From an uncultured Verrucomicrobiae bacterium (GTDB lineage: Bacteria > Verrucomicrobiota > Verrucomicrobiia > Limisphaerales > Palsa-1400), in NCBI GenBank assembly GCA_963707025.1, contig CAVPOM010000006.1, positions 704,001-768,000 of the forward strand: a DNA stretch of 64,000 nt. The letters are read 5' to 3'. The translations under genes were made by a program, and so were the position numbers. Below, piece by piece: positions 5,711 to 23,809 of this stretch (positions are counted from its first letter, which is position 1; each line of letters opens with the position of its first letter). The notes below the pieces were generated by a model. That model did not search any database and was not told the DNA's origin. It saw only the letters and a program-made list of their open reading frames with translations.

Positions 5711-8077
5711 ATGAAAACAAACATGTCAACCCAACAAAAGGCAACCCGCCTAAAAGGAGCATTGCTCCTGGCGCTGGCCGCCACCCTGGGGGCCCAGGCG
5801 GCGCCGATTCCGCTGACCGCGCGGCTCATCGCCCGGCCGGTAACACCCGGCGACGTGACCCGGTTCGCGCTTCCCGCGAGCACGGAGTATTCAACAGGCT
5901 TCAATACGGTGGGCATTGGCACGCCCGTTTATCTGGAGGTGGATGTGAGCAGCAAGGTTCCGCTCTCCACCATCACCAACGTCACCTTTACGCTCACGCA
6001 AGCGCCGCTGAGATCGGCAGCGGGGTTTACGGCCAACACGTTCCCCACGAACATGGGGGTCTTTGAGCCGGCTGACAAACTGATTTACGAGGTGGCCGGG
6101 CGCGCGGTGTTGCGGCCCGACCTGACGACGGCTGACCGGCCCTACATCGTCACCGCGACGATCAACACCACGACCAATGGCTCGACCAACGTGAGCTTCA
6201 CCATTAACGCGGGAACGTATTTGGGAATTTCAGCGTGCGTGTTTTGCCACAGTCCCGGCGGCGGCGCGCCGCCCAAGGTGCCGTTTTGGCAGACCACGGA
6301 GCATGCGAGCATGTTTACCCGAGGGATTGACGGCGTGGTGAGCAGCCACTACAGCGCATCGTGCGAAAAGTGCCATACGGTCGGCTACGACACCAATGCG
6401 GCGAGCCTGGCGGACAACGGATTCTACTCGACGGCCCAGGCCGAGGGTTGGACATTTCCGGCGACATTGAACAGCAACAATTGGGCGTCCATGGTGAGTA
6501 ACTACCCGGACCTCGCCAACCTGGCCAATATTCAATGCGAGAATTGCCACGGGCCAGCCAGCGAACACGCTTATGCCTTCGGCGATACCAACGCAGCCTA
6601 CTGGCCGAGGATCGCGGTGGCGACCAACAACGCGGGCACTTGCAACCAATGCCATGACAGTCCCCCGACGGAAGCCGACGGAGCGCAATGGTACTCCTCG
6701 GCGCACGCGGTGACCACGACCATTCCCACCGGCTCCGGCCGCGACCAATGCGTGATGTGCCACACCGCCTTTGGCTTCGTCACCCGGATCAACAACGTCC
6801 TGACCAACAGCCTGGTTGGCAACACCATCACGAATTTTGCTCCGACCAATACGGCCTACGCGGCGATCAATTGCCAGACCTGCCATGAGCCGCACGGCGA
6901 AACCACCCCGACGAACAATCCGCACTTGATCCGCATGCTGGCATCGGTCACGCTCGGCGACGGCACGGTCGTCACCAACGCGGGAGAGGGAGAACTGTGC
7001 CTGGAATGCCACCACTCGCGCAATGGCTCGGCCGTCACCAACGTCACCCTGTGGTCGTCGGGGCAAAAAACCTGGGCAGGAGCCGCAGTGCCTGTCAGTT
7101 CAAGCGACTTTGGCCCGCACGACGGAGGGCAGGGAGACATGATCGAGGCGGCCAACGCCATCACTTACGGCCTGACCATCCCCAGTTCCGCCCACCGCTT
7201 AACGGTGAGCAACGTGTGCGTCGGCTGCCACATGCAAACGATTGCTTCCGCCGATCCGGGCTTCCTCGTCTCGGGCGAGCACAGCTTCGAAATGAAATAC
7301 AATGTCACCAACAGCGGCGTGGTGACGGAGGTGGACCAGGTGGGCGTCTGCAATGAATGCCACGGCGGGATCAAGTCCTTCAACTTCCCTGTGGAGGACT
7401 ACGATGGCGACGGCGTGATCGAAGGCGTCCAGACCGAAGTGCAGAATCTCCTGAACAAGCTCTCGACACTCGTGCCCAACGCCAACGGCGTGGTGGACGG
7501 CACGGTGAAAACCAAGATGTCTGTCACCACCAACTGGAGCCAGGCGCAGTTGCAGGCGGCCTACAATTGGCAGTATGTCGCCAATGACGGCAGCTTGGGT
7601 GTGCATAACGCCCCCTTTGCCACCGGCATCCTCAAAGCCTCCATCGCCAACCTGACCGGCGTGTCGGCGGCGGGCGGCCTGCCGGATGTGTGGGAGACCG
7701 CATACTACGGCTCGATCACCAACGCCAGCGGCGCACCCAACGCCGTCGGCGCCTGCGGCCTGCCGAACTGGCTGGCCTACGCGCTGGGCGTTAATCCCAA
7801 CAGCGCCAGTGTCACTTACCCAGGCGGAGTGGTTTGGGCCAACAGCTCGGGCGTGGTGGGCGGCAGCACTAACACCATCCAGATCTACACGGCGGCCGAT
7901 ATCACCTTTGACACGGTGGCCGGCACGTCTTATCAAATCCAGGCCATCAACTTCCTGGGCGGGACATGGGCGAATGTCGGAGACCCGATTGTGGCGACCA
8001 ACACCGCCTCCATGAGCTACTTGACGCCGACGCATGGTAATGCGCAACAATTCTACCGCGTAGTGCATACGCCCTGA
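5711..8077 (+). CDS. Secreted nonaheme c-type cytochrome (NrfA/HAO-superfamily-type C-terminal helices) with a C-terminal 'FYRV' domain
   Basis: Signal peptide (...LGAQA), 9 CXXCH motifs, DGSLGVHN, DYDGDG loop, C-terminus SYQIQA...W...QQFYRV. Confidence 0.88.
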   Translation: MKTNMSTQQKATRLKGALLLALAATLGAQAAPIPLTARLIARPVTPGDVTRFALPASTEYSTGFNTVGIGTPVYLEVDVSSKVPLSTITNVTFTLTQAPLRSAAGFTANTFPTNMGVFEPADKLIYEVAGRAVLRPDLTTADRPYIVTATINTTTNGSTNVSFTINAGTYLGISACVFCHSPGGGAPPKVPFWQTTEHASMFTRGIDGVVSSHYSASCEKCHTVGYDTNAASLADNGFYSTAQAEGWTFPATLNSNNWASMVSNYPDLANLANIQCENCHGPASEHAYAFGDTNAAYWPRIAVATNNAGTCNQCHDSPPTEADGAQWYSSAHAVTTTIPTGSGRDQCVMCHTAFGFVTRINNVLTNSLVGNTITNFAPTNTAYAAINCQTCHEPHGETTPTNNPHLIRMLASVTLGDGTVVTNAGEGELCLECHHSRNGSAVTNVTLWSSGQKTWAGAAVPVSSSDFGPHDGGQGDMIEAANAITYGLTIPSSAHRLTVSNVCVGCHMQTIASADPGFLVSGEHSFEMKYNVTNSGVVTEVDQVGVCNECHGGIKSFNFPVEDYDGDGVIEGVQTEVQNLLNKLSTLVPNANGVVDGTVKTKMSVTTNWSQAQLQAAYNWQYVANDGSLGVHNAPFATGILKASIANLTGVSAAGGLPDVWETAYYGSITNASGAPNAVGACGLPNWLAYALGVNPNSASVTYPGGVVWANSSGVVGGSTNTIQIYTAADITFDTVAGTSYQIQAINFLGGTWANVGDPIVATNTASMSYLTPTHGNAQQFYRVVHTP

Positions 8078-8128
8078 GCGGGTTGTGTGCCTGCGGCCTG
8101 TGGCCGCACGGCAACTGACTGACAACAT

Positions 8129-8154
8129 GGCGGCTGGCCGCGAGGCCAGCCGCC
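8129..8154 (+). other. 11-bp GC-rich hairpin with GCGA tetraloop and no U-tract (possible mRNA stabiliser or weak terminator)
   Basis: ggcggctggcc-gcga-ggccagccgcc. Confidence 0.5.
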
Positions 8155-8182
8155 GCACCAAATAGTGCGAGAAAGAAAATCT

Positions 8183-9097
8183 ATGAACCGATCCACGGCG
8201 GACAATGCGGGTGCAACGGAGAAACGGCGCGAAGGCGCGGGGGCGGGCGTTCGCAGCCTGGTTGTGGGATTGGCCTTTTTCGCGGCCGGGGTTGCTCTGA
8301 GTGCGTTGTGGTTTATGCGCGCGCCGGCGCGTGCTCCGTCCGCGCCCGAGGACGCCGGACAGCCCGCGTTGTCGGACGCCACCAGGGCGATTCTACAGCA
8401 CCTTGCTTCACCGGTTGAAATCCGGTTTTATTCATTGCTCGATCCTGCCAGCGCCGGCGACCGCGGGCGGGAATTTTCCGGGCGGGTGGACCAAATGCTG
8501 GCGCAATACGAGCAGGAGGCCGGCGGCAAAATCAAGGTCGCGCGTGTCAATTCGATTTCTACAGCCGCGGCCAATGCGGCGGAGGCTGATGGCATCAAGG
8601 CATTCAACAGGGACAAAGGCGAGGTCTGTTACCTCGGCCTCGCGGTGGTCCGCAACGGCCACAAGGAATCTGTTCCGTCGCTGGCCCCGGAGTGGGAGCC
8701 AGCCTTGGAATCGGACCTGAGCCGCGCCATCGCGGGCGTGGCCGAGGCCGATCCCCCGGCGCAACGCATGGCCAAGGCGGATGGGGCCGCGCTGGAAGCG
8801 GTGAGACGGACCATACCGAACCTTGATGCCGTGTCAGTGGAGGAGGGTTCGCGGCTGCTGCGGGTCGCGGCGGTCGCTCAATTTAAGAAGACCGGGCAGG
8901 AAATGCAGGCCCGGGTCAAACAGGCGGAAGAACATTTTCTCCAAGCGCAAAGCAGCCAGGCCGAGGCGGAACAGGAAGCCGCCGTGAAGGACCTTGAGCA
9001 AGCCAAAAAGGAACAGGCGGCGAAGCTGAAGGAAATCGCCTTGCAGTCCAAGGCGCAAGTGGAGGCGCTGCAACAGCTCAAGGGAGCGGCCCATTGA
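8183..9097 (+). CDS. Membrane-anchored protein with a GldG-N-terminal-like domain and a C-terminal coiled coil
   Basis: One N-terminal TM helix; LSDATRAILQHLASPVEIRFYS...Y...GGKIKV resembles the GldG N-terminus; Q/E/K/A-rich heptad tail. Confidence 0.6.
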   Translation: MNRSTADNAGATEKRREGAGAGVRSLVVGLAFFAAGVALSALWFMRAPARAPSAPEDAGQPALSDATRAILQHLASPVEIRFYSLLDPASAGDRGREFSGRVDQMLAQYEQEAGGKIKVARVNSISTAAANAAEADGIKAFNRDKGEVCYLGLAVVRNGHKESVPSLAPEWEPALESDLSRAIAGVAEADPPAQRMAKADGAALEAVRRTIPNLDAVSVEEGSRLLRVAAVAQFKKTGQEMQARVKQAEEHFLQAQSSQAEAEQEAAVKDLEQAKKEQAAKLKEIALQSKAQVEALQQLKGAAH

Positions 9098-9104
9098 CGC
9101 GGCG

Positions 9105-10733
9105 ATGAGAGGCCTTCCGCGCTTGACATTCCACCGATATTCAGGAATTGCAAAGAATGTGAAGACGCTCTTGTTTGACGGCGTGGCCGGCCTGCTGGCG
9201 GCGGGGTGCCTGGCCGCGCACGCCCAGAGCGTGCCCCATCTGAGCATCACCCAGCCGGGAGGAATGCCCGGGTTGCCGGTGGTGACCGGAGTGGCGCGGG
9301 CGACCAACGGCCTGAGCGTCACCTGGGACGGCCCCTCCGGCTATTACCAACTGTTTGAAAGCGGCAGCTTGACCAACGCCAAGTGGCAGGCCGTGGGAAA
9401 AGACACCAATTTGAACCGACAAGCGACCGTCAGCATAATTTCATCCAACGAGTTCTTTCGCGTCTCGGGCCCGCCGCCCCAATACGCGGGATGGCAGGAA
9501 TGCGCGGGATGCCATTCGCCCATCTTCAACACGGTGGCGCATACCGCGCATCCGTCGGCCTTCACCAACGCGGAGTTTGTCACCGCCGGCGGCCAAAGCA
9601 ACGTCTCCTGTCTGCCCTGCCACACCGTCGGTGCCGGCTTGCCCACGGGATTCACCAGCCTGGCCAAAACTCCCAAACTGGCGGGCGTGCAATGCGAGAA
9701 TTGCCACGGGCCGGCCGGCTATCACGCCGCCAATCCCGAAGATCCAACCCTGGTGCCGCGCGTCGAAGTCGCGGCCACCGCCTGCGGCGGCTGCCATGCC
9801 CGGAGGTATGGGGAATGGGGAACCAGCCAACACGCGGTGGTGATCTCCAATCTGAACGCCAGCACACAGATTGACAACTGCGGACGTTGTCACTCCGGCA
9901 CGGCGCGCTTGAGCCTGATCCAGGGCCTGGCGCCGCTCGCAGGCGACACCGGCTTGGGAATCCAGTGCATCAACTGCCATGACCCGCATCAGACCAACGG
10001 CTACGCGGCGCAACTCCGCTATCCTTTGTCCTCGACCAACGACTATTTCATGCCCACCAACGGCGTGTTCACCAATTACTACAATGCCAGCATCAACGTG
10101 TGCGGCCAGTGCCACAATGATGCCGGGGCCTCGTGGACCAATTCCGCCGCCCCGCCGCATCTCTCGCCGCAATACAACCTGCTGTTGGGAACCGTGGGCG
10201 AACTGGACCCGCCGCTGGCGCATTTCCCGGCCTCCCATGCCACCAAGCTGACCAACCAATGCGTGGCCTGCCACATGCAAACGACGCCTTTCGTCAGCCA
10301 GGCGGCGCCTGGCGACGGCGGCCACAAGTTCACGGTGGACAGTTATGTGGTGTGCGCCGGTTGTCATGGGACCCTCGCCACAGTGCCGCAATTTATGCAG
10401 CAGGTGCAACAATTTCGGAAGGGCAATGCACTTTATCTTCAAGAGTTGACGCTGGATTTGGCTTACTGGGCGACCAACAGCGCCCCCGCGGCGCTGCGGA
10501 GCAAATACGGAACCAATGCGTGGGAATACACCGCGCCCGGCGGGTTGTCACCCGGCGCCCTTGCCGGACCAAACGCGGCCGAGCAGGCGTCAATACCCGC
10601 CAACATTCAAAGGGCGCGGTTTAATATTTACATTGTGTTCAGCGACCAAAGCCTGGGTGTCCACAACCCCGATTATGTGCTGAATCTCCTCGATCAGGCG
10701 GAAATGTGGATCGCCGACGAGCTGGCCCCGTAG
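9105..10733 (+). CDS. Secreted nonaheme c-type cytochrome, paralogue of 5711-8077; true start may be GTG 9159
   Basis: Signal peptide (...LAAHA), 9 CXXCH motifs, shared QCENCHGPA and DQSLGVHN motifs. Confidence 0.88.
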   Translation: MRGLPRLTFHRYSGIAKNVKTLLFDGVAGLLAAGCLAAHAQSVPHLSITQPGGMPGLPVVTGVARATNGLSVTWDGPSGYYQLFESGSLTNAKWQAVGKDTNLNRQATVSIISSNEFFRVSGPPPQYAGWQECAGCHSPIFNTVAHTAHPSAFTNAEFVTAGGQSNVSCLPCHTVGAGLPTGFTSLAKTPKLAGVQCENCHGPAGYHAANPEDPTLVPRVEVAATACGGCHARRYGEWGTSQHAVVISNLNASTQIDNCGRCHSGTARLSLIQGLAPLAGDTGLGIQCINCHDPHQTNGYAAQLRYPLSSTNDYFMPTNGVFTNYYNASINVCGQCHNDAGASWTNSAAPPHLSPQYNLLLGTVGELDPPLAHFPASHATKLTNQCVACHMQTTPFVSQAAPGDGGHKFTVDSYVVCAGCHGTLATVPQFMQQVQQFRKGNALYLQELTLDLAYWATNSAPAALRSKYGTNAWEYTAPGGLSPGALAGPNAAEQASIPANIQRARFNIYIVFSDQSLGVHNPDYVLNLLDQAEMWIADELAP

Positions 10734-10745
10734 CACATCGAGTTT

Positions 10746-11606
10746 ATGATAAAACGCAACCTCAGCATCCTCGCCCGGCAGGCCGAACGGCACGCCCGGG
10801 CATTGGCGCTGATGGCCGCCGCGCTGGTCCTGGCGCTGGCGGCGATCTCATGCGGCACGGTCAGCCGTTCGGTGGTGTTGCTGCCCAATGTTCCCGGCGC
10901 GAAGTACATCGGCTCCAAGGAATGCGAACAGTGTCACGACGAGCTTTACAAGGATTTTGCCACCGCGGACCACGCCCGGTTGATGGCGCCCGGAACCAAC
11001 GCCCTTAATGCCGGCTGCGAATCATGTCACGGGCCCTGCAGTGTTCACGCCGAATCCGGCGGCGAGACCCTGCCTCCCTACACCTTTAAACCAGGACGCC
11101 CGGCAACGGGCAGCTTCGGGGCGCGCCTGGCCGAAGCGCCCGCGCGCTCCACCGGGACGATGTGTTTTCAATGCCACGCCGACGTGCGCGGCGCGTTCTC
11201 CCTGCCCAGCCATCATCAGGTGCCGGAAGGCAAGCTTTCCTGCACCGACTGCCATTCGCCGCACAAGGGTTCCATTCATCTTGGCGGGGGAACTTCGATC
11301 CTGTCCGAAAATGAAACGTGCCTGCGGTGCCACGCCGCGCAGCGCGGGCCTTATGTCTTCGAGCACGAGGCCATCCGGGAAGGCTGCACCATCTGCCACG
11401 TCCCCCACGGCTCGGTCAATGCAAAATTATTGACAGTCCGCGACGCCAACCTCTGTTTGAAGTGCCACTTTCAACAGCAGACCGCGGGCGGGATAATGAT
11501 CGGCGGTTCCGATCACACCACCCGCGTCCAGCAAGGCACCTGCTGGACGGCGGGATGCCACGAGGCGGTGCATGGTTCGCGCGTCAGCCCTGCCCTGCGA
11601 TTCTGA
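10746..11606 (+). CDS. DmsE/MtrA-like multiheme cytochrome c lipoprotein (7 CXXCH + 1 CX4CH)
   Basis: Lipobox-like LAAISC, FSLPSHHQVPEGKLSCTDCHSPH, QRGPYVFEH, terminal CWTAGCHEAVHGS; directly upstream of a porin. Confidence 0.85.
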   Translation: MIKRNLSILARQAERHARALALMAAALVLALAAISCGTVSRSVVLLPNVPGAKYIGSKECEQCHDELYKDFATADHARLMAPGTNALNAGCESCHGPCSVHAESGGETLPPYTFKPGRPATGSFGARLAEAPARSTGTMCFQCHADVRGAFSLPSHHQVPEGKLSCTDCHSPHKGSIHLGGGTSILSENETCLRCHAAQRGPYVFEHEAIREGCTICHVPHGSVNAKLLTVRDANLCLKCHFQQQTAGGIMIGGSDHTTRVQQGTCWTAGCHEAVHGSRVSPALRF

Positions 11607-11618
11607 CCCAGGAAACCC

Positions 11619-13743
11619 ATGCCCATCAAATCACCGCGCGCATTCCGCAAGGCGCCCCTCCGCTGGTGCCGGGCATGGCTGCTGGGCCTTTGCGCCGCGG
11701 GCGGCGGTCTTTGCGCGGCCGACACCAATGCCCCGCCGGCCATGACCCCGGAGCAGATGTTCGAGGGCGGCACCAACGCCTACAGCAACTGGATTGATTT
11801 CACGGCGGGTCAGGCCTTTGTCAGCGGCAACAGCGCGCAATTTCAGCAGCAGCATCAAATCCCCGCTGGAACGTTTGGCGGCATCGGCGATTTCCATTTC
11901 CAAACCGGCATCGCCACCAACACCACGATGACCCTGGACGGCCATGCCATCGCGGAGAACCACGACTACCAGCTCACTCTCGGCGTCCAGCGCGAGAAGG
12001 TCGGCTTCTTGCGCCTGTCCTACGAGCAATCGCGCACCTGGTCCGACGGGGACGGCGGGTTTTTCCCGGGATCAGGACAATACTACCCGGCGGCGGACAA
12101 TCCGCTCGGGCTGGATCGCGGCAAGTTGTCCCTGGAAGGCGGATGGACGCCGGAAACGGGGCCGAAAGGTGACCTTTAAATACACGCACTCGTTCCGCGA
12201 CGGCGCCGAAGGCTCCACCGAGTGGGGCTACGCCCATGAGCCGGGCATCCCTTATGCGCAGGGACTCAGCCCGACCTTGGAGCAGAACCACGAGCACAGC
12301 GACAGCTTTCAAGTGGACGTGGCCAATCACATCAAGGCCACGGATGTCGGCCTGGGCCTCCGTTATGAGACCGGACATCTGGATGATGCGATCAAAATAA
12401 CCGAGTACCCGGGCGAGCCGGTCCAGCAGAAGATCACCGACCGCCAGGGCACGAGCTACGACCTGTTCAGTGTCCACAGCTTCACCGAGACATGGGTCAG
12501 GACCAATGTCATGTTCTCCACCGGGTTCTCCTATTCCGGCGTGGGCAACGACTTTTCCGCCAGCCGGATATACGGCAATGACTTCAACGTCGGTTACGTC
12601 CCCAATGCCAACAGCGATTTCGGCTACTACGGACTGACCGGCACATCGCGTTTGCACGATTATGTATTTGACCTGAACCTGTTCTACAAACCGTCGCCCC
12701 ATTTCACGCTCGTCCCTTCTCTGCGGGTGGATCGGGAAGATTGGAACGCGAGCAGCAGCGGTCTTGAAACCTTTGAGTTGAACACGCCCGTGCCCTTCAC
12801 CACCGACAGCTCCCGCGGCCTGATTGATCTGCGCGAGCGGCTGGACCTGAATTACAACGGCCTGACCAATTGGGCCTTCTATGGACGCGGCGATTTCACC
12901 GAGGGCGACGGGAACTTGAACCAGAACGGCGGGTTGATCCCGGTGGCCGGCTACGGAATTCCAGGCGTGGAGGAGCAGACCGATGACCGCCGCTTCTTCC
13001 AAAAATACAGCGCGGGCGCCCGCTGGTATCCCTCGCGCGGCGTCACGCTGGACGTCGGCGGTTATTACAAAATCAACCACTACCACTATGGCATCGGCCT
13101 GGACAGCACAACCAACAGCCCCGGCAGCCCGAACGAATATCCCAATTTTCTGGCCATGCAGGATTTCGAGACCTATGACGCCAATTGCCGGCTGACCTTG
13201 AGGCCGTGGCAGAACGTGACCGCCATCAGCCGCTACGAGTTCCAACTATCCACCATTCACACCGAGCCGGACCCGGCCTCGGGCCTCTCCGAGGTCGAAG
13301 CATCGCGCATGACCAGCCATATCATCGCCCAGGATGTCAGTTGGATCCCGTGGAGCCGCCTCTCCCTCCAAGCCGGCTTGAACTACGTTTTGAGCGACAC
13401 CCACACGCCGGCCTCCGACCTCACCCAGGCCATCCTCACCGCGCAAAACAACTATTGGACGGTCAACTTTTCCTCGGGCCTGGTGCTGGATGACAAGACC
13501 GACCTCAACCTCAGCTACCTCTACTACCTTTCCGGCGATTACAGCAACAATTCCCCGCTGGGGGTGCCCTACGGCGCCGGCAGCGAGGAGCACGCCCTGA
13601 CGGCGACCTTGACCCGGCGCCTCAGCCAAAGCCTTCGTCTGGCCCTCAGGTATGGCTATTTCCGCTACAACGACGCGGCCTTTGGCGCAAACCGGGATTT
13701 CGGGGCGAACCTCATTTCCGCGAGCCTGCGCTACCGGTTTTGA
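11619..13743 (+). CDS. MtrB/PioB-like outer-membrane beta-barrel porin; one frameshift at ~12165-12168, probably an error
   Basis: ORFs 11619-12179 and 11944-13743 join at ccgaaaggtg (one extra base). Signal peptide, amphipathic beta-strands, C-terminal SASLRYRF beta-signal. Confidence 0.8.
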
Positions 13744-13905
13744 ACGGCTTCTCTAAAAATGTCATGCGAGGCGCAAAAAATGGCCAGCAAAACACAATTC
13801 ACGTTGAGCAAAGAATGGCCGGCAAAGCCATCTTGAACACGATGAAACACAAATAGGCCCGCCCAACGCGGGCCTGACCGAAAACAAAACGACAAAATAA
13901 ATGCC

Positions 13906-14235
13906 ATGAAAATGAAAAAAATGCTCCTTACTTCCCTGGCCCTCGCGGCCACCACGGCGGCCGTGTCGGCTGCCGACGCTGCGGCGACTTGGGACAAGCA
14001 ATGCAAGGCCTGCCACGGCGTTGACGGAAAGGGCCAGACGGCGATGGGCAAGAAACTGGGTTTGAAGGATTTCACTGATGCCAAGTTCCAGGCCACTTTC
14101 ACCGATGTCCAGGCCACCAAGGCCATCAAGGAAGGCGTCAAGGACGGCGACAAGACCAAGATGAAAGCCGCCGAAGACGTGACCGACGCCGACATCAAGG
14201 CGCTCGTCGCCATGGTTCGCGCATTCAAGAAATAG
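13906..14235 (+). CDS. Periplasmic monoheme class I cytochrome c
   Basis: Signal peptide, CKACH, distal Met in KMKA, Lys-rich. Confidence 0.9.
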   Translation: MKMKKMLLTSLALAATTAAVSAADAAATWDKQCKACHGVDGKGQTAMGKKLGLKDFTDAKFQATFTDVQATKAIKEGVKDGDKTKMKAAEDVTDADIKALVAMVRAFKK

Positions 14236-14345
14236 CCAGAACTGCGTCCGGACGGATACTGGCGGGTGTCCTGCCAGCTCCGTCCCCGTGGTCCTCCCCG
14301 GGGCCGGCGGGAAGCCAGGCCGGACTTTCACGGCCGTCGCCTCCC

Positions 14346-15768
14346 ATGGAAGCCTCCGGCCCGGGTTGCACCACAAACCGCCTGATGACAGCCAACGCGA
14401 AATCCGGAATCACCGTCGCAGTGATGTGTGCCGCCTTCTCCGCGCTGGCGCTGGCCTTTTTGTCGGATTCGGGCGGAACGCACCTCAACCGCCCCGCCAT
14501 TGCCCTGGTGGACACCAATTTCCTGGACACCTCAACCACCCGGCGGTCCTACGCGGACTTGGTTCGGGCGGGAGCGGACCTGTCGGATTTTGACTGCTAT
14601 GTTTGTCACGATAAGAAGGCCCCCCCGCCATTGCGCCTGGACGCCCACCAGAACATCATCGTCGCCACGGAGCATGTCGGTCCCACGACGTTTGCAGCGG
14701 ATGACCTGGGCACCAACGATTTGGCCGGGATCATCAAGCGATTAAGGGGGCACTCCGATCCAGTATCCGCTTTGCTGTGGCAGGGTTTGTCAAACTCGGA
14801 GCAATTACTGCTGGTGAATTACCAGCCTGCGGAACCCAGTTCCAAGCCGGCTCAAGATTTGGTGGTGGCAGCTCTTAACAAGATCATTGCAGGACCGTGT
14901 CTTTACGAGCGCGAACGATTCAAAGGGATCTTGTTGGGAGCGGAAACGATCGTCCATCTGGCGCAAAGCCGGACAGGCCCCAACCTGGCCCATCTCAACC
15001 GCCTGCTTCTGGAAGACGCCTTTCCACTGGAATTGTCCAGGAACCGGCATGCCGACATTGTGATGGGGCACGGAGAGCACGGCCGCAACAACAATTGCTT
15101 TAACTGCCACAACGAAACCAATCTCCTCCTGCTCCAGCCCAGGGACGGGCGGGAGTTGACCTTCGCCCAAAGCACCCAATTGTGCGGCAGTTGTCACGGG
15201 CCGACCAAGGCCGACTGGGACGCGGGCGCGCATGGCCGCACCAGCGGGGATTGGGATCGTCACTCCGGGCGCCAAGGGGTACGCTGCCTTTTCAGTTGAT
15301 GAAATCAAGGATTGGCCGGGTTTCGCAAAGAAGTTGAAGGACCATTCCGATGCGGTCTCCGCTTTTCTCTGGCAGAGATTGTCCAACCAGGACCAGGAAC
15401 TGCTGAAGAGCGACCGGCCGTCAGGGCCAGGCTCCAATCCAGCTCAAGTTGCCGTGGTTCAAGTCCTGAACAAGATCATCGGAGAACCGAGTATTGACCA
15501 GGACAAGCGGTTCCAAGGCATTTTGTTGCGTCCCGAAACAACCGACCTGAGGAAAGGATCTCCGGCTGGACCCGGCTTGAGCCGCCTCAACCGGTTGCTT
15601 CTCGAAGACGCGTATCCGCTGGAATTGTCCAGGGACATGGAACGCAAGGACTGCGTGAACTGCCACAACCCTCATTACCCCCACTTTCCTTCGCGAAAGC
15701 CCGCCCCCGGCCCGCACCCATTGAGGGAGATTGACACGGCCGCCGTGGCGCAGACCGGCCAGGAATGA
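14346..15768 (+). CDS. Membrane-anchored tetraheme cytochrome c with two ~120-aa inserted domains; frameshift at ~15267-15270
   Basis: CYVCH, CFNCH, CGSCH in ORF 14346-15299 and CVNCH in ORF 15232-15768; frames join at tccgggcgcc. Confidence 0.75.
14676..15636 (+). repeat. Two diverged copies of an in-frame protein-coding insert (~14676-15050 and ~15271-15636)
   Basis: Both copies read HSD.VSA.LWQ.LSN...LNKII..P...RF.GILL..ET...LNRLLLEDA[FY]PLELSR. Confidence 0.85.
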
Positions 15769-15769
15769 T

Positions 15770-16729
15770 ATGGACAAACCACCCTCATCTCCAGCCAGGA
15801 ATCCGGGGCCCCCGGCCAACGTGATGGGGCGGCGCAGCTTCCTGCGCACCTCCGCCGTGCTGACGACGGGGTTGGCCGCGCTGGCCGCCAGCCTGAAGCC
15901 GCTGCTGGAGATGAACGATTTTCCCACCATGGAGCGGTTCCTGCAAAAGTATTACAAGGAGATGACGCCGCAGGACATGGCCAAAGTTTTGAAGCGGATC
16001 GAGGACGAAGTGGAAGAGCAGTATCACTTGCGCCCCCATGTGCGGGATTTGAAGCCCATGGACGGGGTTGATTTCGTCTATTGCCTGAACTTGACCCGGT
16101 GCATCGGCTGCCGCAAATGCGTCCACGCCTGCGTGGCGGAGAACAACCAGTCGCGCGATCCCGAAATCCAATACATCCGCGTTCTGCGGCTGCCGGACGG
16201 CTCGCTGGATATTGACAAAGCCGACCACTTCTACGCGCCGGATTCGGTGCCGGAGAAGGGCTACTTTTACATGCCGGTGCAGTGCCAGCAATGCAGGAAT
16301 CCGCCCTGCGTCAAAGTTTGCCCGGTGCATGCGACGTGGCAGGAAGCCGACGGCATCACCGTGATAGATTACGACTGGTGCATTGGCTGTCGCTATTGCG
16401 AAGCGGCCTGCCCGTATTGGGCGCGGCGCTTTAACTTCACCAAGCCGTCCACCCTGCCCAAGGAACGCCTCAACCTCGATATGTCTTATCTGGGCAACCG
16501 CCCGCGGCGCCAGGGGGTCATGGAGAAATGCCACTTCTGCATCCAGCGCACGCGCGTCGGCCGCTATCCGGCCTGCGTGGAGGTCTGCCCCGCCGGCGCC
16601 CGCAAGTTCGGCAACATTCTCGACCCGGCCAGCGAGGTCTCCTACATCCTGAGAAGCAAACGTGTTTTTATTCAGCTCAAGGAGGAAATGGGCACCGCGC
16701 CGCGCTTCTTTTACTACTTCGACGTATGA
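15770..16729 (+). CDS. Tat-exported 4x[4Fe-4S] protein (NrfC/DsrO/CbcT family)
   Basis: GRRSFL Tat motif; CIGCRKCVHAC, CQQCRNPPCVKVCP, CIGCRYCEAACP, CHFC...PACVEVCP. Confidence 0.9.
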   Translation: MDKPPSSPARNPGPPANVMGRRSFLRTSAVLTTGLAALAASLKPLLEMNDFPTMERFLQKYYKEMTPQDMAKVLKRIEDEVEEQYHLRPHVRDLKPMDGVDFVYCLNLTRCIGCRKCVHACVAENNQSRDPEIQYIRVLRLPDGSLDIDKADHFYAPDSVPEKGYFYMPVQCQQCRNPPCVKVCPVHATWQEADGITVIDYDWCIGCRYCEAACPYWARRFNFTKPSTLPKERLNLDMSYLGNRPRRQGVMEKCHFCIQRTRVGRYPACVEVCPAGARKFGNILDPASEVSYILRSKRVFIQLKEEMGTAPRFFYYFDV

Positions 16730-18465
16730 GGCGCGCCACTCGGAACTATTTTGTTTTTCTGCGGCGTTGCGCGGGCCTGGCCTTGGAGGGCGACTGGCGT
16801 TACTACGCGTGGATGGGCCTGCTCATCGTGTTCTGCCTGCTCGGCCTCAACGCTTATTGCCGGCAGTTTGCGCATGGCCTGATCGTCACCGGGATGAGCG
16901 ACGAAGTTTCCTGGGGCGTTTACATTGCCAACTTCACTTTCCTGGTCGGGGTGGCGGCGGCGGCCGTCATGATGGTCATCCCCGTTTATATCTATAAGAA
17001 CGAGGACCTGCATGACTTGGTCATCTTCGGAGAACTGCTCGCCGTGGCGGCGATCCTGATGTGCCTGGCCTTTGTCACCGTTGACCTGGGGCGGCCGGAT
17101 CGCTTCTGGCATCTGATCCCTGGAATCGGGCAATTCAACTTTCCCAAATCCATGCTCAGTTGGGACGTCCTGGTGCTCAACGGCTATCTCTTGCTCAACG
17201 TCCACATTTGCGGCTATCTGCTCTACTGTCGCTATCGCAAGGTTAAACCGGCCAAATGGTTTTACATTCCGTTTGTGTTCATCGCCATCGTCTGGGCTGT
17301 CTCCATCCACACCGTCACCGCCTTTCTCTATGTGGGTCTGGGCGGGCGGCCATTTTGGAATTCTTCCATCGTTGGACCCCGTTTCCTGGCCTCCGCCTTT
17401 ACCGCGGGTCCGGCTCTGATCATCCTGGCCATGCAGGTCGTGCGCCGCGTCACCTCTTCCTCTTACATGGCCGCCAGCCCGCCCGGCGAGGGCAGCGGTC
17501 CCATGCCGCAACCCAAACGCCGCGCCGCCACCATCGCCGACTTCGCTCTGCTGTGCCGCCATCTTCCCGAAATGGCCTCGGTGCCGGGCGAGGCCGGCCA
17601 GCGGGCTTTGGCGACGGCGGAAGTCCTGGAGGCCCAGCCTGGCGATGCGGTTTTGCGCCAGGGAGAAACGGAGGCTCGGGCCTTCTTTATCCTGCGCGGC
17701 ACGGTGGTGGTGATACGTCAGGAAGCCGGGCGTTTTCGGGTCACGCGCACGGCAGGACCGGGGGAACAGGTGGGAGAGGTTTCGGCTCTCCATGCCACCC
17801 CGCGCATGGCCAGCGCCATCGCCGAAGAACCCAGCCTGGTCTTGAGCTTCACCGCCGATGCCTTGCGCCTGCTCATGGAATCCACCCAGGTCAACAAGAT
17901 CGTCCGGTCCAGAATGTCCGAGCGGCTCCTCATCACCGATCGCGCCCTCATGACCCTGCGCAGCATCGTGCAGGTTTCCATGCTCATCAACGTCTTCTTG
18001 CTCGTCAACGAAGTCTTCAAGGAATTCTATTCGGGCAACCTGCATGACGAGTCCTCCAAATACCTCTTTGTCGGCCTGGACGGCCATCACGCCCTGGTGC
18101 CCTGGATTTGGACCGCCATCGCCTTCAACCTGACGGCCATGGTCCTGCTGGTCCTGCCGGTCAGCCGCAGCCTCAAATGGCTCAACCTGACCTGCGTCCT
18201 TTGTATTGTGGGCATCTGGATCGAAAAAGGCATGGGCTTGGTCATCCCCGGCTTCATCCCGACGCCCCTGGGCGAAATGATGGAATACCGGCCTTCCCTC
18301 AACGAGACCCTGGTTTGCTTTGGCATCTGGGCCTTCGGACTGCTCTGCTACACGGTTTTCCTCCGCATGTCCGTGCCCATTCTCCAGGGACGATTGTCCA
18401 GGGAGAACGAAGGCGCGCCGAGCCGGTCCATTCGGGCCGCCGTCCCCGCCTCCCCTCAGGGCTGA
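16726..18465 (+). CDS. NrfD/PsrC/DsrP-family quinol-interacting membrane protein with an inserted cNMP-binding domain
   Basis: TGMSDEVSWGVYIANFTF, VDLGRPDRFW, SIHTVTAFL; insert QGE...FFILRGTV...GEVSAL...PRMASA. Confidence 0.88.
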   Translation: MRRATRNYFVFLRRCAGLALEGDWRYYAWMGLLIVFCLLGLNAYCRQFAHGLIVTGMSDEVSWGVYIANFTFLVGVAAAAVMMVIPVYIYKNEDLHDLVIFGELLAVAAILMCLAFVTVDLGRPDRFWHLIPGIGQFNFPKSMLSWDVLVLNGYLLLNVHICGYLLYCRYRKVKPAKWFYIPFVFIAIVWAVSIHTVTAFLYVGLGGRPFWNSSIVGPRFLASAFTAGPALIILAMQVVRRVTSSSYMAASPPGEGSGPMPQPKRRAATIADFALLCRHLPEMASVPGEAGQRALATAEVLEAQPGDAVLRQGETEARAFFILRGTVVVIRQEAGRFRVTRTAGPGEQVGEVSALHATPRMASAIAEEPSLVLSFTADALRLLMESTQVNKIVRSRMSERLLITDRALMTLRSIVQVSMLINVFLLVNEVFKEFYSGNLHDESSKYLFVGLDGHHALVPWIWTAIAFNLTAMVLLVLPVSRSLKWLNLTCVLCIVGIWIEKGMGLVIPGFIPTPLGEMMEYRPSLNETLVCFGIWAFGLLCYTVFLRMSVPILQGRLSRENEGAPSRSIRAAVPASPQG

Positions 18466-18476
18466 CCACCGCTCCG

Positions 18477-18917
18477 ATGTCAAGAAGACTTACAGCCGAT
18501 GACGCCAGGCAATCGTTGAGCGCCCATGTCGCGGGCAGAGGCGCCGAAATATTTGAAAAATATGGACCGCGCATCGGCTGGAACGAGTTGCTGCGCATTC
18601 TGGAAGACCGCGCCTGCGTCCGCTACCCCTGCAAGGCCGCCTTCGACGCCGCCCCGCTGCAACCGGGAGAGTGCGCCTATGCCAGGGCAAATAGCGTCCA
18701 GCCCGAAGACGGATTTGTGATTTACATCCATCCTCTCTTCATGACGCAGATGGACCGGGTGGCGCACCTGGCGCTCTATCAGTTGGCCGTTGTCAACTAT
18801 GGGGAGTTCGCGTCCCCGGATGACGCGGAGGCTTTTGGCGCGGCCGCCCTGGGCATTTCCCGGGAACAGTACTATCAGGGCCTTTGTCAAATGGCCGGTT
18901 TGCTCGAAGAACAGTAA
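18477..18917 (+). CDS. Hypothetical protein (146 aa)
   Basis: ATG 11 nt after the nrfD stop; ordinary globular composition. Confidence 0.6.
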   Translation: MSRRLTADDARQSLSAHVAGRGAEIFEKYGPRIGWNELLRILEDRACVRYPCKAAFDAAPLQPGECAYARANSVQPEDGFVIYIHPLFMTQMDRVAHLALYQLAVVNYGEFASPDDAEAFGAAALGISREQYYQGLCQMAGLLEEQ

Positions 18918-18941
18918 CGCCCTGATTCGAAGTGTCTTTAT

Positions 18942-19364
18942 TTATCGCCCGTCAAAAAGCTGGCCCACCAATGCGCCGGCCTTGCGCGTGGAGATTCGGA
19001 TGCGCAAGATTTTGCGGGCCACGCCTCCCCTGGCCTGGTTTGCCTCCACCAAGGCGGCCAATTCATGCAACGCATCGCGCTGCCGCCGGGCCTTGCCCAA
19101 ATACCGGACCAGCATGAAATCCCGCTCGAAGCAGCGGGGCAGAGTTTTGCGGATGAGAGGAGCCAGCAGGCGCGCGCGCCGGTAAAGCAATATTCGGAAG
19201 GCGCGCTCCTCAAATTCCGCGGGCGGGCAGCGGTGCCGCTGGCAGAATAGAGACATGAAATCCGGCGTGGCCGGCGGTGCGCCGGTTGGTTGTTCCGGGG
19301 ATAATCTGGATGAGGTCATAAAACCACGGGGCATTATCGCCGCGCCGCGGTCGGAATATGGCAT
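18942..19364 (-). CDS. Hypothetical basic protein; start uncertain (19364, 19319 or later)
   Basis: SLFCQRHRCPPAEFEE...LRIRISTRK; TGATG overlap with the upstream gene. Confidence 0.5.
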   Translation of the reverse strand: MPYSDRGAAIMPRGFMTSSRLSPEQPTGAPPATPDFMSLFCQRHRCPPAEFEERAFRILLYRRARLLAPLIRKTLPRCFERDFMLVRYLGKARRQRDALHELAALVEANQARGGVARKILRIRISTRKAGALVGQLFDGR

Positions 19365-19789
19365 CAGCTTTTCGAGTTGGTCCCGCCCTGCCCGGGTGAC
19401 TGATTTTCCGGCGGGCCGGCCTGGTCCACCCAATTCATCTCATCGAGACCGAGGAATTTTCCGCCGCACTGGCATTGGGTTTGGCCATCGTTGATTTTTA
19501 AGCCGTGGCATTTTTGGCAAACGACGGTGCGGTTCCTCTTGGCGCGCCCCCGATACACCCAGTACCCAACTGCCAGCACCAACCCAACCAGCGCGACCTT
19601 GCGCAAGGCGTCCGGCACGAGCCGGGGAATCGGCAAAACCAATCCCCAGAGACTCCGGCCATGCCAGGCCGGCGAGGTGGCGACCACATAGAGCAACACC
19701 GTCCACGCCGCCAACGCCGCCAGGATTTGGCGCCGCCGCCGGATTCTTTTCTGCGCGAGTTTTTCCGCCTCTGTTTTTTCGCGCCACAT
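19364..19789 (-). CDS. Small two-TM membrane protein with a C-terminal Zn-ribbon-like motif
   Basis: Two hydrophobic segments; VCQKC...CQCGGKF. Confidence 0.6.
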   Translation of the reverse strand: MWREKTEAEKLAQKRIRRRRQILAALAAWTVLLYVVATSPAWHGRSLWGLVLPIPRLVPDALRKVALVGLVLAVGYWVYRGRAKRNRTVVCQKCHGLKINDGQTQCQCGGKFLGLDEMNWVDQAGPPENQSPGQGGTNSKS

Positions 19790-20264
19790 GTTTCAGAAAC
19801 AGGTTTACCCGGACATCTCAATCCGCGCGTGCCTCGCAGCACTTTGGAAATTTAAGCCAGGCTCGCCGCGGCGTATAGCGGGTCATTTACCAAACTTATA
19901 GTAGGTTTTACCAGGAATGCTGTAGGGGCTTGCCTCTCACGATGGCCGTCCGGCCCCGGACCGCGGATTGGAAACTCCCGTCAGGCTGGCCGGCGGGCTT
20001 GTGATGTCGGGGCACTCAAGTCTGGTCTTTTCGTGCTTGCAGACGGCGCGCTTGTCGGCCACAGCGCGCACCGGAGCCGTGTGTGGTTTGGTGATAAAGG
20101 AAACGCGGCAGAGGCTTGATGGACGCAGCGCTGCCCAAAAAGCGGACAGTGGCATGGGATCACTGGACAAGCGACGCGTCTTGCCTGGTGCTTTCCGCCG
20201 CCCGCGACGGCCATCCACTGGCAGGAAGGCTGCGGAATTCCTCACTTTGACTGCGCCAAAGGAC

Positions 20265-20280
20265 TGGCATCGCTTCTGCT
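20265..20280 (+). promoter_or_regulatory. Sigma-54 (-24/-12) promoter upstream of the pilin gene
   Basis: TGGCATCGCTTCTGCT has canonical GG-N10-GC spacing, 135 nt before the pilin ATG. Confidence 0.65.
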
Positions 20281-20415
20281 ATAGTTTCTTAGTGTATCAT
20301 CGTCGTGATGACAAAACGCCAGACTGGCAGCATTGGAAAGATCGGACAAACGCAATCATGCTAACCCGCTGCTGGTAATGATTAACAACATATCAAACGA
20401 AAGGTCAGTCAAACT

Positions 20416-20793
20416 ATGAAAATGAAGAACAAGAAACAGAGTGGGTTCACACTGGTCGAAATTATGATCGTGGTCGCCATTATCGGCCTGCTGGCCGCCA
20501 TCGCGATTCCGAACTTCGTTCGCGCCCGCACCACCTCGCAGACCAATGCCTGCATCAGCAACCTCCGCATCATTGACGGCGCCAAGGGCCAGTGGGCCTT
20601 GGAAGTCCACAAACAGAACACCGACACGCCGCTCGGCACCGACCTCCAGCCCTACATGGGCCGTGGTTCCGCCGGTGAATTGCCCATGTGCCCGAATGAC
20701 TCGGCGCAAACCTTCGCCACCAGCTACACCCCCAACAGTGTTGGCATCAAACCGGTGTGCAACATCGTGCCGGCCACCCACAGCCTGCCATAA
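20416..20793 (+). CDS. Type IV pilin / prepilin (class III signal peptide)
   Basis: KKQSG|FTLVEIMIVVAIIGLLAAIAIPNF with E5; 115-aa mature protein. Confidence 0.92.
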   Translation: MKMKNKKQSGFTLVEIMIVVAIIGLLAAIAIPNFVRARTTSQTNACISNLRIIDGAKGQWALEVHKQNTDTPLGTDLQPYMGRGSAGELPMCPNDSAQTFATSYTPNSVGIKPVCNIVPATHSLP

Positions 20794-20835
20794 GACAACT
20801 CTTCTGTCTTGATCGCTCAGATCATGACAGCCCAG

Positions 20836-20864
20836 GCCCGGAAGAAATTCCGGGCTTTTTTTTT
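20836..20864 (+). terminator. Rho-independent terminator after the pilin gene
   Basis: gcccggaa-gaaa-ttccgggc followed by T9. Confidence 0.9.
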
Positions 20865-21285
20865 GTTCGCGCGGCACGACCGGCGCAACGGGTGTCCCGG
20901 CCGGCCGCTCCACGTGCGCCGGGTGAAGGGCGATGGAGCGGTGGCGGCGAGTGCGGCCGGGGGAGGCGGTTCTTCCTCTCACGGCGATGGAGGGGCCGGC
21001 AAGACTTTGAGCGAAAGACGGTATTCTTGCCAAACGAACCCAACTTGGACTTCCCGGCAAGAGCGCGGCAGCGGAATTGAACCCCTTGTGGGCCAACGCG
21101 CCAGGAATGAACGGCCTCTTTCCGTTAAAAACAAGGCGATGTGGGAAAGCAACTCCACAAAAAATGTCGTGTAAATGACAAATCCCGCGAAGCCGAATCG
21201 GCGCTGGGTTGCGATGTTGCCAAAGTGAAAACAAAGTGGAAATCAAAAGCCGCCGGAAATTCCGGCGCCGCCTGGAACGGAGACG

Positions 21286-21747
21286 ATGTCGCGCTTGCTT
21301 AAAATGCCGCCGCAACTGGTCCGCCTGGTGCTGCTGACCATTGGGATCGTGTGCGTTTATTTCGTCGCGCGCTACTTCCTGGCGCCCCCGTCCTTTGGGC
21401 AATACGGCCATTACCGGGCGGCCGCGTTGCAGGAGATCGCCGCGCGCCAGCCCTATTGGGCCGGCAAGGCGGCGTGCGTGGAATGCCATGCCGCCCATGC
21501 GGAGAAGCTGGCCAAAGGCGAGCACAAGAACCTTTCGTGCGAAACCTGCCACGGCCCCGGCCAGGCGCATGTGGCCAATCCCCCCGAGAAACTGCCCAAG
21601 CTCGACATGAGCCTTTGCGTGCGGTGCCATGAGGCCAGCCCGTCCAAACCGAAATGGCTCCATCAAATCAACAGCCACGACCATTACACCGGGAATCTTT
21701 GCACCGAGTGCCATGTTCCCCACCAACCCAAGGAGGTTCCACCATGA
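21286..21747 (+). CDS. Membrane-anchored tetraheme cytochrome c (CbcS-like)
   Basis: N-terminal TM helix; CVECH, CETCH, CVRCH, CTECH. Confidence 0.85.
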   Translation: MSRLLKMPPQLVRLVLLTIGIVCVYFVARYFLAPPSFGQYGHYRAAALQEIAARQPYWAGKAACVECHAAHAEKLAKGEHKNLSCETCHGPGQAHVANPPEKLPKLDMSLCVRCHEASPSKPKWLHQINSHDHYTGNLCTECHVPHQPKEVPP

Positions 21748-22550
21748 GCGAGCAGATCACCCGGCGCACCATCCTGAAGAATCTGGCTGGAATAGTCGGA
21801 GGTATTCTTGCCTTGCCGGCCGCCCGCACCTGCAAAGCGGGGGTGCAAAACCTTCTGGCCTCATCTCCCGCCCCGTCCGGCTACGATCCGTTCGAGCACA
21901 AATGGCTGATGGCGCTGGACGTGGACCGGTGCATCGGCTGCGGCCGTTGCGTGGAAGCTTGCTGCGAGGAGAACGGGGTGCCGGAAGGCCACTGGCGCAC
22001 CTGGATTGAACGCTACGTCATCACCAGGCCCAAGGCAGGCTCCGGCGAGACCCGCGGGGCAACGTTTGTGGACTCACCGGATGCCGGGAGATATGGCTTT
22101 CCGCAGTTGCTCATTCCAAAGGAGGACATTCTCAAGTCGTTCTTTGTCCCCAAACTCTGCAACCTGTGCGAGCATTCGCCCTGCACCCAGGTCTGCCCGG
22201 TTGGGGCCACCTTCGACGCCCCGGACGGCGCGGTGCTGGTGGACAAGAATTATTGCATCGGCTGCGGTTTTTGCATCCAGGCCTGCCCGTACGGATGCCG
22301 CTTTTTTAATCCGCAAACCCACACCGCCGACAAATGCAACCTGTGCTACCATCGGATTACCCGCGGCCTCAAGCCCGCCTGCGTGGAGATTTGTCCCTCG
22401 CAGGCCCGGGTTTTCGGCGATCTGAAACACCCCGTGCCGGACGATCCGCTGCAAAAATTCATCAACGAGAACAAGGTGGAAGAGTTGAAAAAAAGCCTGG
22501 GCACCGGTCCGCGCGTGGTCTATGCGGGCCTGGACGAGGAGGTCCGATAA
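21744..22550 (+). CDS. Tat-exported 4x[4Fe-4S] protein (NrfC/CbcT-like)
   Basis: TRRTIL twin-arginine motif; four ferredoxin cluster motifs; ATGA overlap with the upstream stop. Confidence 0.88.
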   Translation: MSEQITRRTILKNLAGIVGGILALPAARTCKAGVQNLLASSPAPSGYDPFEHKWLMALDVDRCIGCGRCVEACCEENGVPEGHWRTWIERYVITRPKAGSGETRGATFVDSPDAGRYGFPQLLIPKEDILKSFFVPKLCNLCEHSPCTQVCPVGATFDAPDGAVLVDKNYCIGCGFCIQACPYGCRFFNPQTHTADKCNLCYHRITRGLKPACVEICPSQARVFGDLKHPVPDDPLQKFINENKVEELKKSLGTGPRVVYAGLDEEVR

Positions 22551-23809
22551 TGAGCGCCGCCATTCTCACCAACGTCGTGGAGGCGCTCCCGCAGTTCCAA
22601 GGCTACGTCTATCCCAACGAACGGACGCTGCATCCCCTGTGGAGTGTGCTCATCGTGGTCTATCCCTACATCACCGGTTTGGTGGCGGGGGCTTTCATCA
22701 TGGCCTCGCTGGTGCGGGTTTTCAAAGTCAAGGCGCTGGAGCCGATTTACCGGCTGGCCCTGTTGACGGCGCTGGCCTTCATGCTCTGCGCCACCTTGCC
22801 CCTGCTGTTTCACCTCGGCCATCCGGAACGCTGCTTTGAAATCATGATGACGCCGCACTTCAGTTCTCCCATGGCCATGTTCGGCTTCGTCTATGCCTGG
22901 TACCTGATGGCCGTGCTCCTGCTCGAACTTTGGTTTGACTACCGCCGGGACTTTGTCGCCTGGTCCAAGACGGCGGCCGGTTTGCGCGGCATCCTCTACC
23001 GCGCCTTCACCTTGGGAGTGACCGACCTGTCCGAGCCGGCGCTGCGGCTGGATGCCCGCATGGGCCGGATCATTTCCATCGTCGGCATTCCGTCGGCCTT
23101 TCTCTTGCACGGTTATGTCGGTTTCATTTTCGGCTCGATCAAGGCCAATCCCTGGTGGGGCAACCCGCTGATGCCGATTATTTTCATTCTTTCCGCCGTG
23201 GTGTCGGGCATGGCGCTGTGCGTGTTCGCCTACATGTTCCTGTGCTGGGCGCGACGCATCACGGCAGACATGCGGTGCCTGGATTTGATGATCAGCTTCC
23301 TTTTTTATGCCGTGGTGCTGGATGCGACCATCGAAGGGCTGGACTGGCTGCACCGGCTTTATTCGGCGGAGGAGGGGATTGAAGTGCTCAAGTCGGTGGC
23401 GTCGAGCAAGCTGTTTTACACGCTGCTCATCGGGCAGGCCTGCCTGGGCACGCTGGTGCCGCTCCTGCTCCTGGGAACCATGCAACTCATCCGCAAAAAA
23501 GTCGCGGAGTTGAATCGCCGCCGCGTCTATTTCTCCAGCACGGTGCTCATCCTGATCGGCGTGCTGGCCATGCGGTGGAATGTGGTCATCGGCGGCCAGC
23601 TTTTTTCCAAGAGCCTGCGCGGTTTCATGAGCTACAAAATGGAGTTCGCCGGCCACGAAGGCTGGTGGCTTTCCCTCGCGCTGCTCGCCCTTCCTTTTGT
23701 CATTTTGACGGTGTTCATCAAGTATTTTTTGGACCGGGACCTGCCCACGCTGGAGAACGTGGTTCCGGGCGCGCCGCCGCGGGCGGGTTCGCCCCCGGCG
23801 CCGGCTTGA
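22550..23809 (+). CDS. NrfD/PsrC-family membrane protein (CbcU-like)
   Basis: WSVLIVVYPYITGLVAGAF, HLGHPER, SPMAMFG, LHGYVGFIF, RWNVVIGGQ; TAATG coupling. Confidence 0.88.
   Translation: MSAAILTNVVEALPQFQGYVYPNERTLHPLWSVLIVVYPYITGLVAGAFIMASLVRVFKVKALEPIYRLALLTALAFMLCATLPLLFHLGHPERCFEIMMTPHFSSPMAMFGFVYAWYLMAVLLLELWFDYRRDFVAWSKTAAGLRGILYRAFTLGVTDLSEPALRLDARMGRIISIVGIPSAFLLHGYVGFIFGSIKANPWWGNPLMPIIFILSAVVSGMALCVFAYMFLCWARRITADMRCLDLMISFLFYAVVLDATIEGLDWLHRLYSAEEGIEVLKSVASSKLFYTLLIGQACLGTLVPLLLLGTMQLIRKKVAELNRRRVYFSSTVLILIGVLAMRWNVVIGGQLFSKSLRGFMSYKMEFAGHEGWWLSLALLALPFVILTVFIKYFLDRDLPTLENVVPGAPPRAGSPPAPA

Follow-up and report, generated by a model that had tools for sequence, protein, structure and literature searches.

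The window analysed here, a stretch of 64,000 nucleotides from an uncultured Verrucomicrobiae bacterium, contains a gene for a tetraheme c-type cytochrome that is interrupted by two in-frame inserts. We consider it very probable that these inserts are copies of a 361-bp MITE with ISL3-type ends, which was likely pasted in by a transposase acting in trans, encodes a separate predicted fold and is carried by its hosts as a tolerated passenger. The original prediction had proposed a mobile, in-frame protein domain that colonises loops, and this proposal is borne out by unrelated hosts, by orthologues that are empty at the insertion places and by the absence of a match to a known family. The vehicle, which on comparison of the ends appears to consist of ISL3 terminal inverted repeats together with 8-bp target duplications, goes beyond what had been foreseen.

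The cytochrome gene lies upstream of 4Fe-4S and NrfD/DsrP-like genes (Table 1), and its CxxCH heme motifs are found at 14595, 15096, 15183 and 15652. Two homologous inserts, 52% identical over 122 aa (E 4e-39), sit between heme motifs 1 and 2 and between motifs 3 and 4; by comparison with orthologues, the protein has about 215 aa when empty and 460 aa with both inserts. The GC content is 0.56 in each insert versus 0.62-0.64 in three host segments, GC3 is 0.64 and 0.66 versus 0.77-0.81, and ctggaattgtccagg is present near the 3' end of both. These results agree with the original prediction, which had described two diverged homologous inserts at these places, less GC-rich than the host and with a common 3' end sequence. 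The limits that it had given, about 14676-15050 and 15271-15636, are replaced by those in Table 1, and the gcatg that it had noticed on both sides of insert 1 belongs to the 8-bp duplication.

Table 1. Positions in the window of the cytochrome gene, its two inserts and the associated target sites
Feature	Position	Strand	Basis or remark
Host gene: membrane-anchored tetraheme c-type cytochrome	14385..15768	+	Start codon by orthologue N-terminus match
Left 8-bp target duplication copy, insert 1: AGCATGTC	14671..14678	+	Empty allele comparison
Insert 1: putative coding MITE, 367 bp (361 + two internal codons)	14679..15045	+	Net +125 aa vs empty orthologues
Left terminal inverted repeat, insert 1; reads GPTTFAAD	14679..14702	+	20/24 to ISL3 end
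Right terminal inverted repeat, insert 1; + strand reads FPLELSRN	15022..15045	-	19/24 and 21/24 to two ISL3 ends
Right target duplication copy, insert 1: GGCATGCC	15046..15053	+	6/8 to left copy
Extra frame-shifting base	15261..15261	+	Missing from otherwise identical public contig
Left target copy, insert 2: GCGCCAAG	15269..15276	+	6/8 to empty allele of G001/G003
Insert 2: putative coding MITE, 360 bp; predicted six-helix domain	15277..15636	+	Net +121 aa vs empty orthologues
Empty target site, neighbouring 4Fe-4S gene	16233..16240	+	In G004 (L010) the unit is here, between ACGCGCCG and CCGCGCCG

The two ends of insert 2 each match one ISL3 end at 17 of 24 positions, and when the ISL3 end of genome G319 is compared with the whole 64-kb window, its four best matches (17-20/24) fall on the four insert ends. 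We infer that the right target copy of insert 2 has lost 6 bp. The two inserts appear to be separate insertions and not the outcome of a local duplication. We rejected insert 2 as a local copy of insert 1 because of the 52% identity and because the two fall in separate starred clades of a tree built from 36 rows chosen out of 124; in this tree the deep forks are weakly supported (8 of 33 starred).

In the window, a +1 frameshift immediately ahead of insert 2 divides the cytochrome gene into ORFs 14346-15299 and 15232-15768. A contig of run X1 (n = 1, 242 bases, depth 2.3) is identical to the window except that it does not have base 15261, and run X1 may be the source sample of the window assembly. 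In the orthologues P0001-P0004 both inserts lie within a single frame of 459-460 aa. Base 15261 is probably an assembly error. Because of this extra base, the junction "GDWDRHSG" that had originally been proposed for insert 2 is a shifted-frame reading; at this position the orthologues read W-D/N-R-x-P-G-A-K. The cytochrome of this strain could instead be a real pseudogene broken at insert 2, a question that concerns the locus only and not the element: the frameshift is indeed present in the window sequence itself. Set against the public contig, possibly of the source sample, without the extra base, the intact orthologues and a second frameshift in the porin-like ORF pair close by, a pattern that fits an assembly prone to indels, this reading seems quite unlikely to us.

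The porin-like gene (11619-13743) is made of two ORFs that overlap near 12170, where the second frameshift may be an assembly error, and it adjoins a gene for a DmsE-like multiheme protein (10746-11606). Both lie in a large multiheme cluster (5711-23809) with several cytochromes and two cytochrome/4Fe-4S/NrfD-type modules, which we take to resemble a porin-cytochrome electron-transfer system. Another observation is the gene at 16726-18465, whose product is a DsrP/NrfD-type membrane protein into which a cyclic-nucleotide-binding domain is inserted (residues 302-386); for a quinone-coupled redox module this fusion is unusual.

In its youngest copies the unit measures 361 bp and has inverted ends; this length is found in 50 of the 124 full copies, which range from 343 to 394 bp. 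The copies were arranged in 68 host-site groups, a grouping that merged two genomes repeating genomes already counted. Across these groups, positions 1-9 have the same majority base in the left end and in the right end when the latter is reverse-complemented, and the signal of a flanking duplication peaks at the 8-bp register. The ends came to light only from young copies. The G319 ISL3 end, GGTTCCTCGACGTTTTCAGTGGAT, is identical (24/24) to the left end of the coding copies L045 and L259. There it reads GSSTFSVD, the translated ends of the unit being GSSTFSVD and YPLELSRN. As a control for bias, we considered 36 sites (68 copies) obtained from the protein profile alone, with loci found by the DNA pattern left out. 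At these sites both consensus ends match an ISL3 end at 20 of 24 positions, and the duplications give 3.17 of 8 matches versus 2.25 when shuffled, a value reached in 0 of 10,000 shuffles. Moreover, arginine at the right end is encoded by AGR in 16 of 32 cases versus 3 of 57 just inside, and leucine by TTR in 20 of 41 versus 23 of 124; codon choice at the right end follows the IS. The young copies L062, L259 and L010 have duplications of 7/8 and a match of 6/8 is reached at 11 of 80 sites; no perfect 8/8 duplication was seen among the coding copies at these 80 sites. We saw no near-identical pair of copies in different genes (best 82% DNA identity) and found no intact free-standing coding copy. 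An unanchored repeat search at the junctions of the own genome gave nothing clear, and a search of viral contigs with one end-motif pattern gave no match.

The partner element was reached by a 15-base end pattern with matches in 2 of 301 genomes. It is 1334 bp long, is flanked by a perfect 8-bp duplication and encodes an ISL3 transposase (PF01610, E 3e-60; NF033550 above the cut-off). Close transposases occur in 8 of the 31 genomes of the window's family, several of them in elements of 1325-1336 bp with perfect duplications. Within the window's genus, none of 6 genomes has a matching transposase at E<=1e-60, including the window's own genome, G000 (88% complete; the assemblies range from 64 to 92%), in which one weak ISL3 fragment was detected. 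The ISL3 transposases that this genus does have share 25-33% identity with the partner, and we could link no matching ends to them. In G014 (L288, L294, L297-L299) one ISL3 transposase has no fewer than 11 matches, several of them in identical elements of 1333 bp; judged from these sequences, this ISL3 element is a candidate for a recently active partner.

Non-coding MITEs with the same ends are present in G214 and G001, and others with related ends in the own genome. The latter include two elements of 347-351 bp with related ISL3 ends (G000:C6:185535-185885, L229, and C15:41820-42166, L230), which have duplications of 8/8 and 7/8 as well as internal repeats; the whole genome gives about 30 end-like matches versus 5 for the control. 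G214 (L189, L201, L236-L239) shows a burst of non-coding MITEs of 316-322 bp with the unit's ends, with 76 end matches versus 0 for the control, and also holds the young coding copy L259. The interior of the unit has no clear likeness to the IS or to these sister MITEs (best nhmmer E 0.033).

We found 16 orthologues of the cytochrome in a search of the 31 family genomes. Ten of them, all from other genera, are empty at both places; the notion that all orthologues carry both inserts therefore fails, on the very alignment for empty sites that the original prediction had suggested. The 6 filled orthologues belong to one genus, that of the window, and display three insertion sites. Two have site 1 only, two have another site five codons upstream of insert 2, and in two genomes, this one and G005, sites 1 and 2 are both filled; a duplication at site 2b would need an 18-bp loss. 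Contigs of run X2 skip both inserts. In G004 the unit is found in the 4Fe-4S gene next to the cytochrome, at a site where the window has no insert, and YidC is filled at two different places. From these alignments, the three sites in the cytochrome appear to be independent insertions.

The reading frame used by the unit is open in all 68 host-site groups, which is so by construction, and the other five frames contain 2.5-5 stops on average. For the interior, the median dN/dS is 0.28 in same-site pairs (n = 19) and 0.41 in different-host pairs (n = 70); these values come from the 361-bp copies only (50 of 124), the pairs are not independent, and in one "different host" pair, L002/L119, both copies in fact come from a single site in a BSP-type gene. 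The ratios indicate that the domain is under purifying selection. Copies are mostly 30-65% identical, with free third codon positions in the core. AlphaFold, run on an alignment of 106 copies, gave six helices (pLDDT 90.6, pTM 0.85), and the product is predicted to be a separate six-helix domain of about 120 residues; bridge residues, at 10 and 117, suggest that its termini meet in the model. We found no family match in Pfam, NCBIfam or PDB sequences (two singletons only in Pfam at E<=0.01). Foldseek gave no fold match at E<=0.001, an absence that is no proof of a new fold. The best VIA-align hit among solved folds was weak (Z 4.0, rmsd 3.5, 97 aligned), and the ESM Atlas returned only patatin clusters below 0.9, which we treat as a lead. 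The structure prediction and Foldseek search that had been called for thus yielded a confident helical model and no characterised domain. Unusual RNA structure was not found: the folding z-scores are -1.35 and -1.48 and only the ends pair. An RNA hairpin or RNA splicing was rejected on these scores. The suggested comparison with coding palindromic elements holds for the in-frame mobility; the unit is not palindromic.

A profile search of the own genome gave 14 copies, 13 of them within 10 genes. The hosts are the cytochrome (2 copies), YidC, an MgtA-like P-type ATPase, a BSP peptidase (2), a CHASE2 cyclase, a GH95 protein, TssG (2), two TMEM260-like paralogues and a membrane protein without Pfam match. 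A left-truncated orphan copy (G000:C18:118669-118998, L006) with an open frame of 149 aa was observed downstream of an IS3-like element. The domain is present in 38 of 41 related genomes, and the copy number is 7-14 within the window's genus and 0-8 outside it; among 150 listed matches of 155, 147 lie in open frames of at least 200 aa and 1 has a stop. In protein databases, 437 longer proteins match the domain, and the best 120 of them represent 33 unrelated Pfam architectures, counted by eye, including sigma factor, LigA, integrase, peroxiredoxin, MFS, ABC and SurA proteins. At E<=0.001, 1,685 protein clusters (50% identity) match. These profile searches, which the original prediction had proposed, place the domain in many unrelated hosts, with soil bacteria as the carriers, and support its mobility. 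A species-wide scan with the DNA pattern found at least 117 loci; the 117 listed all hold the domain, 74 of them being from Verrucomicrobiota and the rest from about ten other phyla, including one archaeon. Some records outside Verrucomicrobiota are single host families or possibly mis-binned contigs. Outside this phylum the spread consists of domain records only, and our claim of independent mobility is limited to Verrucomicrobiota.

Several arrangements of the unit were observed among the proteins. One copy is nested within another in P0041, the unit occurs in the zinc-finger region of an NAD-dependent DNA ligase (P0095), and P0033 and P0121 contain it in a PF09617 Cas protein and in a tandem array of six or seven copies, respectively. 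In TMEM260-like proteins (L008, L026-L038), many families of the order share an old copy at a single site, where it is apparently fixed.

On these data we propose the following mechanism. An ISL3 transposase, provided in trans, would recognise the 24-bp ends and insert the unit at 8-bp targets. Unit and duplication together add 361 + 8 = 369 bases, that is 123 codons, so that the downstream frame is kept whatever the insertion phase. Of the six phases just one is read through cleanly, and therefore the other insertions would be lost, a purge that we infer; no intact copy in another phase was seen. Surviving copies would fold with both termini close, in a host loop and apart from the host, and would be kept in shape because misfolding would harm the host. 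Since no free coding copy was seen, the copies within genes may be the donors. Most likely, the domain is a tolerated passenger without a shared host function. The same few genes are filled repeatedly, for which neutral insertion gives no explanation; few tolerant sites, a target preference or a benefit could account for it.

If a benefit were the reason, the unit could be an ISL3-bounded cassette whose captured domain is functional, acting for instance in binding or self-association, and is kept because it serves the host. Independent repeats in the same genes (the cytochrome at three sites, the next gene at one, YidC at two), the fixed copy of TMEM260-like proteins in many families of the order and the conserved polar residues N105, R106 and E110, partly due to bias of the search pattern, are in line with this possibility. 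So is the presence of at least two copies in 78 of 248 matched proteins, a biased count since multi-copy proteins score higher. However, the hosts have no pathway or compartment in common, ranging from a periplasmic cytochrome and YidC to a sigma factor, a DNA ligase, an integrase and a peroxiredoxin, and most orthologues do without the domain. In addition, a dN/dS of 0.3-0.4 is moderate, and no donor family was found in the ESM Atlas, Pfam, PDB sequences, VIA-align or Foldseek. We hold this account to be unlikely.

Alternatively, an ordinary promiscuous domain might have spread by illegitimate recombination, its ISL3-like ends being due to chance or to constraint on the protein. The low identity between most copies, the free third codon positions of the core and the many old copies without duplication would fit such a history, but the ends are mutual inverted repeats despite different frames and strands, one of them matches an IS end at 24/24, the synonymous codon bias is confined to the end and the duplication signal appears only at the 8-bp register. 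This explanation, which the comparison of ends appears to have largely refuted already, is to our mind very improbable. Still less credit can be given to removal of the insert from the product, either by RNA splicing or in the manner of an intein. The occurrence of the insert in usually essential genes such as YidC and LigA could be so explained; against this, there is no match to an intein family, the model is all-helical, RNA structure is not strong, copies also lie near protein termini (53 of 361 matches) and selection acts on the protein. The original prediction had likewise seen no intein, and the lack of a family match together with the helical model confirms it. The preferred reading remains that of a passenger domain moved by ISL3 ends.

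Inteins have a beta-rich HINT fold, an N-terminal Cys, Ser or Thr and a C-terminal His-Asn, and spread by homing. Like them, the unit is an in-frame mobile insert in conserved proteins; unlike them, it has no splicing motifs or family match, is helical and has DNA-transposon ends in place of homing. It displays the features of a MITE, with inverted repeats, duplications, many short copies without transposase and empty as well as filled alleles. As in the ISL3 family (PF01610, NF033550), its ends are about 24 bp long and begin with GG and its duplications have 8 bp, whereas it has no transposase and its ends are themselves translated. PMC5559704 reports an ISL3-like transposon that has 25-bp repeats, generates 8-bp duplications and forms circular intermediates.

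The closest comparison is with Rickettsia palindromic elements (RPEs; Ogata et al. 2000, 2002), which the passages on them in PMC10969869 present as small mobile in-frame repeats that insert in unrelated genes and encode a conserved peptide; they are palindromic, measure about 105-150 bp, lie in ORFs for about half of them, and no transposase is named in those passages. Like RPEs, the unit sits in frame in unrelated hosts and encodes a conserved peptide. It differs from them in being 361 bp long and not palindromic, in its ISL3 ends with an identified partner, in its location almost only in ORFs, in encoding a confidently modelled domain of 120 aa and in a range that covers a bacterial order, with records in other phyla. 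By analogy, the unit would work like RPEs, but it does not seem to be one. In-frame fusions with chromosomal ORFs are also described for the ORFs of MITEs or repeats such as ERIC/YPAL, BOX, BRE, Anabaena MITEs and Coxiella QMITE1/2 (PMC3184786, PMC5896051); according to the former, a 2011 review, the stability of in-frame repeat fusions was not known. Unlike the unit, all these repeats are mostly intergenic, short and often terminal extensions, and the fusions of the unit persist across genera under apparent purifying selection. We found no description of this element in searches of the open-access literature. The kind, an in-frame MITE, is already known, and we regard the ISL3-ended, domain-coding unit of 361 bp as a new variant of it.

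A further-reaching proposal, possible though somewhat short of probable, is that of a selfish protein domain. Its fold would have been born on an ISL3 MITE, partly from transposase binding sites; the adjacent termini would be an adaptation to survival within genes; in-gene copies would be long-term donors, re-mobilised by each arriving ISL3 transposase; and more than 1,000 protein clusters would have been seeded in this way. How a domain comes to be inserted in the middle of a protein and how new folds originate are open questions, usually without a traceable mechanism. In the present case the vehicle, the enzyme, the 361 + 8 arithmetic and the empty and filled alleles are all in hand, so that laboratory work can reconstruct the process and put it to the test, and the copies form an age series from intact 24/24 ends to copies fixed across the order. 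The unit distorts the annotation of Verrucomicrobiota proteins, and its positions mark loops that tolerate insertions in YidC, P-type ATPase, LigA, MFS transporters and cytochromes. It shows a way in which proteins can acquire entire domains from mobile DNA.
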